64,000 nucleotides of DNA from Candidatus Thiodiazotropha sp. (GCA_040506775.1 JBEVWC010000027.1:159801-223800), one strand, 5' to 3'. Positions 4,653-34,328 are shown, numbered from the stretch's first letter. Numbers and translations are program-made. The notes: generated by a model not told the origin, from the sequence alone.

Positions 4653-4681
4653 GACAACCTCCTTGGTGTCCATTGATCTCC

Positions 4682-4779
4682 GGGGTCGGAGTCGAATCAA
4701 GAACGGTGTGTTTGCCCACAACACGCTCTTGTCTGTTTTCGAGGTGATGCACGATGCGGGCACTCTCGACTCCGACCCC
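4682..4779. repeat. 98-bp TIR-bounded palindromic element, type A, copy 1
   Basis: GGGGTCGGAGTCGA...TCGACTCCGACCCC 14-bp terminal inverted repeats; directly upstream of the RAYT fragment. Confidence 0.95.
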
Positions 4780-4796
4780 TTAGGGCGGGGATCTCC

Positions 4797-4894
4797 GGGG
4801 TCGGAGTCGAATCAAGAACGGTGTGTTTGCCCACAATACGCTCTTGTCTGTTTTCGAGGTGATGCACGATGCGGGCACTCTCGACTCCGACCCC
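4797..4894. repeat. 98-bp TIR-bounded palindromic element, type A, copy 2 (tandem, 115-bp period)
   Basis: Reads identical to 4682-4779, including flanks GATCTCC and TTAGGGCG; ends just before the hydrolase stop codon. Confidence 0.95.
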
Positions 4895-4902
4895 TTAGGG
4901 CG

Positions 4903-5817
4903 CTACATCTTTGACTGAAAAAAAGGTGCAAGTACGCTCACGGCCTCGCTGATCTCCGCTTCGCCATCATAAAGACTCATATGATTCGCACCGGAGACGA
5001 TGTGCATGCTCTTGTCGGTGGTCGCGGCCCTTTCCATCAGATCGTCACTCATCCATTTACTGCCCGCCTCGCTGCCAACGATTGTTTGAAGCGGTTGTGT
5101 CAAGAATGCTTCAGCCTTGTGGAAAGCGTCGTACGTGATAATTTGGTTCAAGCTCCGCGCCGTTGCAAAACCCGGTGCCGTGCAATACTTAGCGCGATTT
5201 GTATGGTAGTACTCCCATGCTTGGCGCAACTCTTCATTCGGTGCGTCAGCCTCATTTAGAGGGGCCATGGGAATCGTCACAATCTCTGCACCGCTGGCGT
5301 CTAACGTTCGCGCGTCCGATCCTGCTTGCAGATATGGAATGGCATCACTGTCTTTGACGTTATTGTCCCAGCCATTACGGAACATCTGACCGATGTTCAC
5401 CAAGCTTACGGTACCTACGGCCTTGATACGACGGTCGTTGACCGCCGCGTTGGCGGTATACCCGGCTCCCGCACAGATGCCCATCGCACCAATTCGCGCC
5501 TTGTCCACGTAAGGCAGGGTTGTCAGGTAGTCGATGACTGCACTTACGTCTTCGGTACGGATATGAGGGTTCTCCAACTGGCGGGGTTCGCCCGTACTCT
5601 CGCCCTGATAAGACGCATCGTAGGCAATAGTGACGAAACCTTCTTTCGCGAGCTTTGCCGCGTAGGTGCCCGCCGTCTGTTCCTTTACACCACCGCCGGG
5701 GTGAGAAACGACGATGGCTGGATACTGCTGGCTTTCATCGAATCCCTCTGGAAAGTAGATAACCGCAGCCATTGTGATGGTGTAATTGTTCGAATTGGGG
5801 AAATTAACCTTGTTCAT
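4903..5817 (-). CDS. Alpha/beta hydrolase (YcjY/FrsA-like, S15-like)
   Basis: HPGGGVKEQ, DASYQGES, nucleophile elbow GICAGAG and C-terminal GANHMSLYD. Confidence 0.85.
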   Translation of the reverse strand: MNKVNFPNSNNYTITMAAVIYFPEGFDESQQYPAIVVSHPGGGVKEQTAGTYAAKLAKEGFVTIAYDASYQGESTGEPRQLENPHIRTEDVSAVIDYLTTLPYVDKARIGAMGICAGAGYTANAAVNDRRIKAVGTVSLVNIGQMFRNGWDNNVKDSDAIPYLQAGSDARTLDASGAEIVTIPMAPLNEADAPNEELRQAWEYYHTNRAKYCTAPGFATARSLNQIITYDAFHKAEAFLTQPLQTIVGSEAGSKWMSDDLMERAATTDKSMHIVSGANHMSLYDGEAEISEAVSVLAPFFQSKM

Positions 5818-5940
5818 GTGTGATCTCCTGAAACTTGTCCGGTTAGAAGGTGTTGTTCAAATCGCGTGAAAAAAGCATAGGCACGCTCCGATTAATCTAC
5901 AATGCGTTTAAAATGATTGTATTTATTATTGAGGTGATTA

Positions 5941-6831
5941 ATGAAAAGGGACGAGATTGCCGACTTGGCCGCCTTCGTAGCCGTTGCAGAGGAAAAGAGT
6001 TTCACGCGAGCCGCAGTAAGACTTGCCATGTCTCAGTCTGCGCTGAGTCAGATTATCCGCCGGCTAGAAGAGGATGTGGGCCTGCGACTGTTGTCCCGTA
6101 CGACACGTAGCGTTGCGCCGACCGAGGTCGGCAAGCAGCTGCTTGATTCGCTTGCTCCACTCTTCAAGGACATCGATGCAAGTATCGCAGGGCTCGCGGA
6201 GTATCGCGACAAGCCCGTTGGCACATTCCGCATCACCACCGTTGAGCATGCTGCAAAAGTCTACATACTGCCTAAATTGACAAGATTGCTTTCAGAATAT
6301 CCGGACATAAAGGTCGAGATCGTCACTGAGTACGGCTTGGCTGACGTCGTTTCAGATCAATATGATGCAGGTGTCCGCCTTGGAGAAGAAGTCCACAAGG
6401 ACATGATCGCCGTCCCGATCTCTCCTGAGATCCCAATGGCTGTGGTTGGCTCACCGGAGTATTTTTCCCGATATCCGGAGCCAAATAATCCAAAGCAACT
6501 GGTTGACCATCTCTGTGTAATTCTATCGCTGCCTTCTCGCGGCGCCATCAACGAATGGCGTTTCACGAGACACGGGGAAAACAGCCACGTCCGCGTCAAC
6601 GGGCCGCTCACGTTCAACACTATCGACCTAATACAAGACGCAGCAGTCAGTGGCATGGGTTTGGCCTATCTGCCACTGGATCAGGTTCAGAAGGATTTGG
6701 ATGCTTGCCGTCTTTCCTCTGTCCTCGACACTTGGATGCTGCCATTACCACCATACTACCTCTACTATCCCAATCGGAGACACTCTTCCCCGGCGTTCAG
6801 GTTAATCGTAGATGCTTTGAAGTATTTCTAA
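5941..6831 (+). CDS. LysR-family transcriptional regulator (CrgA/PgrR-like), divergent from the hydrolase
   Basis: N-terminal HTH SFTRAAVRLAMSQSALSQ, RLLSRTTRSVAPTE, DAGVRLGE and YLYYPNRR. Confidence 0.93.
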   Translation: MKRDEIADLAAFVAVAEEKSFTRAAVRLAMSQSALSQIIRRLEEDVGLRLLSRTTRSVAPTEVGKQLLDSLAPLFKDIDASIAGLAEYRDKPVGTFRITTVEHAAKVYILPKLTRLLSEYPDIKVEIVTEYGLADVVSDQYDAGVRLGEEVHKDMIAVPISPEIPMAVVGSPEYFSRYPEPNNPKQLVDHLCVILSLPSRGAINEWRFTRHGENSHVRVNGPLTFNTIDLIQDAAVSGMGLAYLPLDQVQKDLDACRLSSVLDTWMLPLPPYYLYYPNRRHSSPAFRLIVDALKYF

Positions 6832-7198
6832 CCATAGCGTCAATCGGGGACAGACCACGGTTACTATGTCAGCAATTGACCTAACTGCTGTCTTTTTTGA
6901 AAAACAGCGCTATTGTCTCCTTCGGTCGCGTTTCGGACATACTAGTAGCAACGACGGGTGACGCTTTACGTCTAAAGCACCCATTTTGATGGTACGGCGC
7001 GCGGAATCCGCCGACCTTTTCTCTAACAATGTCATACTCATCCACTGCCGTGACGGACTTCTCTCCGCCGAACGCGTATTTGTGACGGGCTTTACCCACA
7101 CACAACAAGGCAGCATCCAGGCCGAATAACAGATCCGTCGTTCGACCTGGCGCAAAGCAGGCGGTGTCCGATAAACCTCCTGCTGGTTTTTATTCTGT

Positions 7199-33264: not shown

Positions 33265-33295
33265 ATTGCCGATGTTGCCAGCCAGCACCAGCCAC

Positions 33296-33324
33296 TCCCA
33301 CTCAATCGTCGCCGGCGGCTTGCT
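33296..33324 (-). repeat. Duplicated guaA 3' end (att-like scar, distal island boundary)
   Basis: Encodes [10 protein letters not shown] on the minus strand; 26/29 nt match to 41349-41377, all three mismatches at synonymous third positions; contains GAGTGGGA. Confidence 0.88.
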
Positions 33325-33334
33325 CGGTATCTCC

Positions 33335-33433
33335 GGGGTCGGAGTCGAATCGAGAACGGAGTGGTTGGCTTGATGAATGCACTTGGCTATTTTCGAGATG
33401 ATTCACGGCCTGAGCACTCTCGACTCCGACCCC
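33335..33433. repeat. 99-bp TIR-bounded palindromic element, type B, copy 1
   Basis: Same 14-bp TIRs as type A with a different interior; part of a 118-bp direct repeat (33327-33444 and 33596-33713, one mismatch). Confidence 0.95.
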
Positions 33434-33447
33434 TCCAGCAATCACCC

Positions 33448-34200
33448 CTAGTGTGGATCTGCACCCCCAACCAACTTTGCCACCTTAAGCAAAAAATCCG
33501 CTTGACCGATCCCGATACCCTTTTCAGTTCCACGGCGGATCTCCGACAGCACCTTACGCGATACCGTCTGCTCGAATAACGCGAGATAAGGTGTTGTATC
33601 TCCGGGGTCGGAGTCGAATCGAGAACGGAGTGGTTGGCTTGATGAATGCACTTGGCTATTTTCGAGATGATTCGCGGCCTGAGCACTCTCGACTCCGACC
33701 CCTCCAGCAATCAAGTCCAAATAATTTCTATGAGGAGTCACCAGACCATCGGGTTTCCCCAATGCATTAGCATGAAAACTGGAATAAGGATAATCCTCCG
33801 GCCGTCGTGCGATACCGGCACGTACCGGATTCAATTCGATATAGCGGTAGCAGGCCAGAAGATAGCGGTCGGTGTCCACCAGGCCCGATTTATAGCGTCC
33901 CTCCCACAAGGAACCGCTGCGGTGGTAACTGCGATTGAAATACTGGGCATAGCGCCTGCCCACTGACTGCATGGCCCGGGGCAAGGAGTGCTCTTCCTTG
34001 GGTGTCACAAGAAGGTGGATATGGTTATGCATCAACACCCAAGCATGCACCGCCAGCGAGTTGTGCTCGGCCGCTTCCCGCAGACATCGATAGAGAAAGC
34101 GAAAATCTTCGTGGCGAGCAAGAATCGGATCACGGTTGTGCCCGCACACCACCACATGCTGTGGCTGATCCGGCAGGAATATGCGGGGTTTTCTTGGCAT
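33448..34200 (-). CDS. REP-associated tyrosine transposase (RAYT, Y1 HUH family)
   Basis: AAGGAGG RBS before ATG 34200; HUH motif MHNHIHLL, LWEGRYKS and catalytic YIELNPVRAG, DYPYSS. Confidence 0.92.
   Translation of the reverse strand: MPRKPRIFLPDQPQHVVVCGHNRDPILARHEDFRFLYRCLREAAEHNSLAVHAWVLMHNHIHLLVTPKEEHSLPRAMQSVGRRYAQYFNRSYHRSGSLWEGRYKSGLVDTDRYLLACYRYIELNPVRAGIARRPEDYPYSSFHANALGKPDGLVTPHRNYLDLIAGGVGVESAQAANHLENSQVHSSSQPLRSRFDSDPGDTTPYLALFEQTVSRKVLSEIRRGTEKGIGIGQADFLLKVAKLVGGADPH
33604..33702. repeat. 99-bp TIR-bounded palindromic element, type B, copy 2, inside the RAYT reading frame
   Basis: Near-identical to 33335-33433; read in frame as GVGVESAQAANHLENSQVHSSSQPLRSRFDSDP. Confidence 0.93.
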
Positions 34201-34229
34201 GACAACCTCCTTGTTGTCTATTGATTTCC

Positions 34230-34328
34230 AGGGTCGGAGTCGAATCAAGAACGGAGTGATTTGCCCACAACACGCTCATGTCTGTTGTCGAGGTGATGCG
34301 CGATGCAGGCACTCTCGACTCCGACCCC
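34230..34328. repeat. 99-bp TIR-bounded palindromic element, type A, copy 3, upstream of RAYT
   Basis: Highly similar to 4682-4779; same position relative to the RAYT start codon. Confidence 0.93.

Follow-up and report, generated by a model that had tools for sequence, protein, structure and literature searches.

What kind of mobile unit is formed by the inverted repeats that accompany a tyrosine transposase gene in Candidatus Thiodiazotropha sp.? The stretch analysed here (GCA_040506775.1 JBEVWC010000027.1:159801-223800; 64,000 nt, the window) carries an intact gene for a Y1 (HUH) transposase, a truncated second copy of this gene, and five repeated elements of 98-99 bp with 14-bp terminal inverted repeats (TIRs). 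A first-pass annotation had tied the elements to genes for RAYTs, the tyrosine transposases associated with repetitive extragenic palindromes (REPs), as a substrate class distinct from canonical REPs, and had proposed that their two interior types, A and B, are the left and right ends of a REPtron-like unit. The window cassette is very probably a TIRtron, that is, a TIRYT-type Y1 transposase together with its cognate non-autonomous elements. The repeat class has been known since 2013, and the window holds a new member of it. The genes and elements are located as follows.

33448-34200, minus strand: intact Y1/HUH transposase gene, encoding 250 aa (P0001), the one intact copy in the genome
4487-4652, minus strand: 5' fragment of the transposase gene, 166 bp or about 55 codons, 92% identical to the intact gene
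4682-4779, minus strand: element A1, 98 bp, ahead of the truncated second gene copy
4797-4894, minus strand: element A2, 98 bp, in head-to-tail tandem with A1 at a 115-bp period
33335-33433, minus strand: element B2, 99 bp, beginning 15 bp past the transposase stop codon
33604-33702, minus strand: element B1, 99 bp or 33 codons, in frame within the transposase gene
34230-34328, minus strand: element A3, 99 bp, in the leader of the transposase gene and ending 29 nt ahead of its ATG

The elements are defined by the pairing of one 14-mer. With 0-1 mismatch, GGGGTCGGAGTCGA occurs at 10 sites in the window, all of which form facing pairs 84-85 bp apart and give the five elements; with up to 2 mismatches there are 11 matches against 0.58 expected, and 0 of 100 shuffles got to 11. 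All five elements share one orientation and read, in the sense of the gene (minus strand), A-GGGGTCGGAGTCGAGAGTGC...CCGTTCTYGATTCGACTCCGACCCC-GGAGAT, the core extending over 98-99 nt from GGGGTCGGAGTCGA to TCGACTCCGACCCC. The GGAGAT that follows each element in this sense appears on the plus strand as a flank ATCTCC in four elements and ATTTCC at 34230. Copy number, positions, orientation, TIRs and left flank are therefore as the first-pass annotation had described them, and so are the two interior types: identity is 97% between A1 and A2, 87% between A3 and A1 and 99% between B1 and B2, while A and B share about 72% identity, align over the full length and are collinear. The A copies lie upstream of both transposase starts (4652 and 34200), and the B copies lie inside or downstream of the gene. 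In the whole assembly (51 contigs, 4.47 Mb, 57% G+C), GGGGTCGGAGTCGA with 0-1 mismatch forms no further pair, so that the family has exactly five members there. As single strands, the copies each adopt a single long hairpin with the 14-bp stem at its base, with energies of -22.7 to -25.7 kcal/mol and z-scores of -2.9 to -4.2. The feet of the stem are GGGG/CCCC; the canonical REP/REPIN foot GT[AG]G is not present, the elements contain neither GTAG nor CTAC, and, as had been noted earlier, there is no GTAG or CGTC foot. Furthermore, the 14-nt arm is not self-complementary and is thus not an imperfect palindrome of 20-40 nt like a REP arm; only the whole element forms a hairpin. An Rfam scan of 4000-5500 with E up to 1 gave no family, and a search of the published literature for the repeat sequence matched unrelated primers alone.

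The transposase places the cassette in a known class. P0001 matches the Pfam family Y1_Tnp (E 9.7e-15) and the NCBIfam model REP_Tyr_transpos ("REP-associated tyrosine transposase"; 89.8 bits, cutoff 80); the NCBIfam equivalog model transpos_IS200 scores 28.6, under its cutoff of 55, and no tnpB is situated near the gene. Inverted repeats instead of GTAG REPs were described beside RAYT-like genes by Di Nocera, De Gregorio and Rocco in 2013 (BMC Genomics 14:522, PMC3733652), who named the cassettes TIRtrons and the enzymes TIRYTs. TnpAY1 subclass 2.1 corresponds to these TIRYTs and to Group 1 of the RAYTs of Bertels (Quentin et al. 2018, PMC6006769), and its Table 1 criteria (NH[VI]H or NH[YF]H, W[EQ], YIELNP or Y[IV]HLNP, SS; median 238 aa) fit both the length and the motifs of P0001, namely NHIH (residues 59-62), WE (99-100, in LWEGRYK), YIELNP (120-125, in YRYIELNP) and SS (140-141, in YPYSS). 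In BLASTP, P0001 aligns directly with the published TIRYT hch1378 of Hahella (sequence from Additional file 5 of PMC3733652), with 37% identity and an E of 6e-56 over residues 1-245, including the C-terminal tail. E. coli TnpA-REP aligns with 24% identity over 100 residues (E 2e-10), and PDB 4er8 was also matched. Within the tail, the AlphaFold2 model contains three helices (residues 203-244; predicted local distance difference test (pLDDT) about 40-66), and the tail sequence aligns with the TIRYT tail; Pfam searches with the tail of four homologues, at E up to 5, gave no match, whereas a domain of the Bac_DnaA_C, HTH_23 or HTH_28 type is expected for subclass 2.1.

The repeats can be compared with those of the published class. 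Like the TIRtrons, the cassette combines a RAYT-like Y1 transposase of about 210-250 aa bearing a C-terminal extension with non-GTAG inverted repeats that start with a form of GGGGWSAS, a motif found in many or some TIRs and not obligatory (PMC3733652). The families are likewise "moderately abundant" and single, dimeric or clustered (PMC3733652). The window TIR starts with GGGGTCGG, which fits 7 of the 8 positions; copies of the same repeat family in sister genomes start with GGGGTCAG, an exact match, and homologues 40-45% identical to P0001 from Gamma-, Beta- and Zetaproteobacteria have the flanking repeats GGGGTCAGASTC. The window elements differ from the published TIRtrons by the G in place of A at position 7, by forming closed doublets of 70-100 bp with conserved asymmetric extensions, and by one doublet lying in frame within the gene, which PMC3733652 does not report. 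Hence the proposal of a non-GTAG RAYT substrate is sound in that the class is real, and needs correction, as our main result, in that the class was already catalogued, as TIRtrons (PMC3733652) and as subclass 2.1 (PMC6006769). Meanwhile, the same genome holds a second, distant Y1 gene (G000 contig C12, about 25557-26671) that is 36% identical to P0001. It is flanked by inverted repeats of its own, GGGGACACTCA(A)TAA..., which fit GGGGWSAS exactly, and this locus is a classical TIRtron.

The association of gene and repeats recurs outside the window. At seven independent loci with P0001 homologues of 60-84% identity (from a Sedimenticolaceae metagenome-assembled genome (MAG), a Lamellibrachia symbiont, Chromatiales and Thiohalomonadaceae MAGs, and others), doublets with the ends GGGGTCGGAGTCRA or GGTGTCRGAGTCGC are located just upstream of the gene in 7/7, just downstream in 6/7 and inside it, at the same place, in 6/7. 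The proposed tie to RAYT genes is borne out by these Y1 RAYT-like genes with the same ends, but at the first locus in the window only the 166-bp gene fragment is present. The arrangement of A and B is also found at L110, the locus of the closest homologue (84%), where the upstream copy is A-like, the internal copy is B-like and there is no downstream copy; in more distant relatives, by contrast, both flanking copies belong to one subtype (L001, L002, L004 and L113) and the internal copy belongs to another and is shorter.

Dispersed copies exist in other genomes. In five of them, exact GGGGTCRGAGTC occurs 38 times forward and 37 times in reverse, 19 and 22 times, and, in the remaining three, 8-11 times each way; these matches nearly always form facing pairs 57-87 bp apart, amounting to about 37, 20 and 9-11 pairs, with 0-1 matches in the backward control, and the dispersed copies are single complete units with both inverted repeats. 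No genome of the window's genus has a transposase more than 53% identical to P0001. Nevertheless, one genome of the genus (G051, 99% complete) contains the 99-bp element in at least 17 copies, at 75-85% identity to those of the window, with no cognate gene, and three others (G041, G013 and G057) contain one copy each. They are probably orphan populations as known for REPINs, and the gene may have been lost at a contig break. In the window's own genome the family is nearly extinct, with five copies that are all located at the gene or at one gene fragment. A short subfamily (68-75 bp) in G062 has perfectly conserved stems of 18-21 bp, interiors of about 30 nt that vary, and only A|...|T enriched in its flanks. 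When an orthologous short element was compared between L190 (G061:C1, about 3845825-3846440) and L186 (G062), a 51-bp insertion was observed in the left inverted repeat of one of the two genomes, with GGTCGG duplicated at the flanks of the insertion.

The flanks of the copies reveal a unit larger than the hairpin. Nineteen copies of the 99-bp type, 12 of them dispersed, were oriented alike and aligned. On the 3' side, GGAG(R)T(A/C) is kept in 17/19 copies. On the 5' side, the 12 dispersed copies have (T)AA(C)ATCA directly ahead of the first G, with A at -1 in 11/12, C at -2 in 9/12, T at -3 in 8/12 and A at -4 in 9/12. A direct repeat between the two flanks is found in none of the 19 copies, and a target duplication is thus absent. 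Beyond their 99 bp, B1 and B2 have in common an 11-nt 5' flank, TGATTGCTGGA, and an 8-nt 3' flank, GGAGATAC. At B1, TGATTGCTGGA is transposase coding sequence (LIAG, conserved in the homologues P0002 and P0024); as both this coding flank and the 3' flank are present at B2, B2 was copied from B1 as a 118-nt unit. In the tandem of A1 and A2, the repeated unit is 115 nt, GCCCTAA-element-GGAGATC. The repeated unit accordingly measures about 112-118 nt and consists of the hairpin core, 7-11 nt on its 5' side and 7-8 nt on its 3' side with GGAGRTA conserved, so that the inverted repeats appear to be subterminal and the unit asymmetric and oriented. Two further candidates were rejected at this point. 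A mini-hairpin at the 3' end, CTCC-GACCCC-GGAG, does not serve as a general recognition element, since neither the short subfamily nor the GGTGTCAGAGTC variant has the GGAG flank. A 3-bp GGA target duplication at B1 was discarded because the 3' side keeps its GGAG regardless of which 5' flank is present. The subclass 2.1 clade thereby gains a defined candidate substrate of 112-118 nt, in which the inverted repeats are subterminal and are followed by GGAGRTA on the 3' side and preceded by ...ATCA on the 5' side. According to Quentin et al. (PMC6006769), subclass 2.1 genes have no REP-like structures in their vicinity, unlike those of this clade, which has both nearby REP-like structures and in-gene repeats; the oriented, subterminally structured doublet unit is one part of the residual novelty for this subclass, next to the in-frame copy.

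Two known systems allow the behaviour of this unit to be considered. As in the REPIN-RAYT systems of Pseudomonas and Enterobacteria (Groups 2 and 3), a pair of inverted repeats makes up a hairpin of about 100 nt, and the elements are non-autonomous: they flank the gene of the Y1 transposase on which they depend, which is usually present once, and orphans outlive the gene. The differences are the lack of a GT[AG]G foot, the arms that are not palindromes, the 5-40 copies here as against usually more than 100 REPs or REPINs per genome, reaching hundreds, and an enzyme of a different subclass with an extra C-terminal domain. With the IS200/IS605 insertion sequences (IS608, ISDra2 and IS200), the elements share subterminal hairpins, the absence of a target duplication and a short conserved sequence on the 5' flank only. 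As these are hallmarks of single-strand transposition, a mechanism of the IS200/IS605 type is suggested. Unlike in IS200/IS605, the gene is not multiplied as identical copies (one is intact and one is a 92% identical fragment), and tnpB is missing. With IS608 TnpA and E. coli TnpA-REP as models, the core of each oriented unit of about 112-118 nt would fold on the single strand into one long hairpin; the enzyme would bind this hairpin on single-stranded DNA and cut a few nucleotides outside the stem on both sides; and the unit would be moved or copied without duplicating the target, by preference beside ...ATCA. In this scheme the cleavage of single strands, the positions of the cuts and any present-day activity are inferred, whereas the sequences, their tie to the gene, the membership of the family, the dispersal of the units in other genomes, the lack of target duplication and the conservation of the in-frame copy are read directly from the data.

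Several points weigh against the assignment to a mobile TIRtron. The TIR deviates from GGGGWSAS at position 7, the cleavage of the element hairpins is assumed from analogy, and no enzyme of subclass 2.1 has biochemical data (PMC6006769). The GGAG 3' flank is not conserved in the short subfamily of G062. An empty site was sought with the flanks of two G051 copies in 45 genomes of the genus; the left flank and the right flank led to different genomes or to none, and no clean empty site emerged to pair with a filled one. The precise ends, like the target, would therefore follow from the flanks of the 12 dispersed copies, some of which may be duplicates of one another. Furthermore, both loci checked between G062 and G061 are filled in both genomes, and such orthologous copies in two related genomes indicate that most copies are old, so that any current mobility is conjectural.

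The part that seems to be new is the in-frame copy. B1 is read through as GVGVESAQAANHLENSQVHSSSQPLRSRFDSDP (GVGVES...FDSDP) and lies in the linker between the catalytic core and the C-terminal tail. The 121 best homologues of P0001 were aligned and the linker was measured between the invariant residues H157 and Y205. It comprises 9-16 residues in 26 full-length homologues (modal length 13) and 18-61 residues in 91 of the 117 full-length homologues, where the extra residues can be read as inverted repeats in translation, in various frames and variants (GVGVES...DSDP; GSES...LTPTP; and VSES...DSDT, corresponding to GGTGTCAGAGTC). Only 4/121 homologues end at the linker. The C-terminal tail (IRRGTEKG-GIGQA-FLLKVA) is nearly invariant, which indicates that selection keeps it in frame. 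In the AlphaFold2 prediction from a 26-sequence alignment, pLDDT is 83-95 over most of the catalytic core and below 50 at residues 167-199, and the insert is thus modelled as a disordered loop, in which the in-frame copy would be tolerated and inherited along with the gene. More distant TIRYTs (about 100 loci, 40-53% identity) align to the insert-free profile with no gap at the linker, and the in-frame trait is therefore specific to the clade of P0001.

On a tree calculated with the linker columns excluded, which is quick and poorly resolved, insert presence requires 12 changes against a mean of 23.8 for shuffled data, and 0/500 shuffles were as low; the well-supported branches force at least 2 changes, and the insert has apparently been gained or lost more than once. 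In-gene repeat insertions were stated to be unique to subclass 2.4 (PMC6006769). The two cases are alike in that the transposase's own repeat is found in its own gene, with the frame kept, in a surface-exposed variable region; here, by contrast, the repeat comes after the Y motif, within the linker leading to the C-terminal tail. Carriage in frame of the enzyme's own repeat thereby extends from subclass 2.4 to a large gammaproteobacterial clade of subclass 2.1, at another position, and is unreported for this subclass in the literature examined. A speculative and rather unlikely idea is that the in-gene hairpin acts as a protected 'master site', the enzyme excising and re-inserting the hairpin seamlessly in its own linker and so toggling the spacing of core and tail or feeding back on expression; the recurrent gain and loss of the insert on the tree would then be accounted for. 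If true, such a system would supply the as yet uncharacterised TIRYT enzymes with a substrate that is natural and self-reporting.

A further reading is that A and B differ in function as a left and a right end, so that A, transposase and B would form one composite, self-mobile REPtron-like unit. A is located upstream and B inside or downstream both in the window and at L110, the A copies together with the first 166 bp of the gene at the locus of the truncated copy mean that these have travelled together at least once, and Group 1 RAYTs have the highest duplication rate of the RAYT groups (Bertels et al. 2017, PMC5581495). On the other hand, A and B are collinear variants of one element with about 72% identity and the same orientation, hence direct repeats and not inverted ends. 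Moreover, B is also found inside the gene, the flanking copies of L001, L002, L004 and L113 are of one subtype, L110 has no downstream copy, and the dispersed copies are complete by themselves. The left-and-right-end model of the first-pass annotation is therefore not upheld, and a composite unit is distinctly improbable.

Another possibility is that the hairpins are control elements of the transposase gene acting in cis, as a leader hairpin, a terminator past the stop codon or an internal RNA or DNA structure, selected for expression and not mobile here. Two features on either side of A3 are relevant.

34201-34218, minus strand: Shine-Dalgarno hairpin GACAAC-AAGGAG-GTTGTC, with the Shine-Dalgarno sequence in the loop, directly before the ATG
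34335-34363, minus strand: sigma-70-like promoter match TTGATA-17-TGnCACAAT, a weak consensus match just upstream of A3

The Shine-Dalgarno hairpin is conserved at L110 (84% identity) and is imperfect at the truncated copy; it can be likened to the hairpin for translational control in IS200, where the ribosome-binding site is contained in a small hairpin. Judged from its sequence, the promoter match, if used, would cause A3 to be transcribed as a 5' leader. A3 is thus situated between a promoter-like site and a ribosome-binding hairpin. In addition, 5/5 copies of this genome lie at the gene or its fragment, which also fits a purely cis-regulatory role and to that extent tells against the TIRtron assignment; the short subfamily keeps its inverted repeats but has freely diverging interiors; and most of the clade retains the internal copy. 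Against this stand the tens of copies far from any transposase gene in other genomes, the copies of G051, at least 17, with no cognate gene, and the copying of B2 from B1 together with its flanks. A role in cis alone is consequently very unlikely, although control in cis and mobility are compatible and not mutually exclusive. As for miniature inverted-repeat transposable elements of an unrelated DDE-type insertion sequence, near the Y1 gene by chance, their usual appearance (about 100 bp with terminal inverted repeats) is matched, but the probability is close to nil given that target-site duplications are absent in 19 copies, that the 14-mer occurs nowhere else in the genome and no insertion sequence with these ends is therefore present in it, that no DDE insertion sequence bounded by GGGGTCGGAGTCGA was found in the element-rich genomes, and that the ends flank a Y1 gene at every related locus examined and carry a form of the published TIRYT motif.

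The TIRtron of the window is situated at the edge of a genomic island, bounded by a repeat of the 3' end of guaA.

33296-33324 and 41349-41377, no strand assigned: 29-nt direct repeat of the guaA 3' end, 26/29 identical
41345-42931: guaA itself

The island (33325-41344) extends over 8 kb with 46% G+C against 57-60% in the flanks. The cassette B2-transposase-A3 forms its edge, and B2 with its 8-nt flank sits 2 nt from the repeat. Besides the cassette, the island contains a class-3 lipase gene (39350-40636) and two open reading frames with no family (176 aa and 1021 aa), and no integrase. A tRNA or tmRNA as the attachment site of the island was rejected, as there is none in the window and the boundary repeat is the 3' end of guaA; this end also accounts for matches in nearly every genome of the genus in the search for orthologous loci. 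For either window locus, no orthologous locus was found in the genus, and synteny ends at a DUF6279 gene (33264). The elements would have arrived with this 8-kb island next to guaA. Group 1 RAYTs are described as more horizontally mobile than other RAYTs and as located on plasmids (PMC5581495). The clade resembles subclass 2.1/Group 1 in its patchy distribution, which suggests horizontal transfer, in occasional duplicates and in plasmid or island location, and flanking 16-mers at about 12 copies per replicon are a further likeness. At L110 (1777-5696), which is part of a conjugative element, the gene of the closest homologue, P0002 (84%), directly precedes DUF1525, TraU and TraG_N genes. The guaA island and this neighbourhood of conjugation genes agree with the horizontal mobility of Group 1.

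At the second transposase copy, the start codon is at 4652 and homology to the intact gene ends at about 4487. Adjoining this break, about 80-100 bp (4386-4495) match short sequences in five other genomes of the genus (G049, G020, G048, G002 and G047) at 69-100% identity. In three genomes of the window's genus (G011, G012 and G014; L152-L154), a single 72-bp doublet, GGGGTCGGAGTCAAG...CTTGACTCCGACCCC, was observed at what is apparently one orthologous site, far from any Y1 gene. Its palindrome is extended by an A-run and a T-run, and by its sequence it looks like an orphan copy or a bidirectional terminator.

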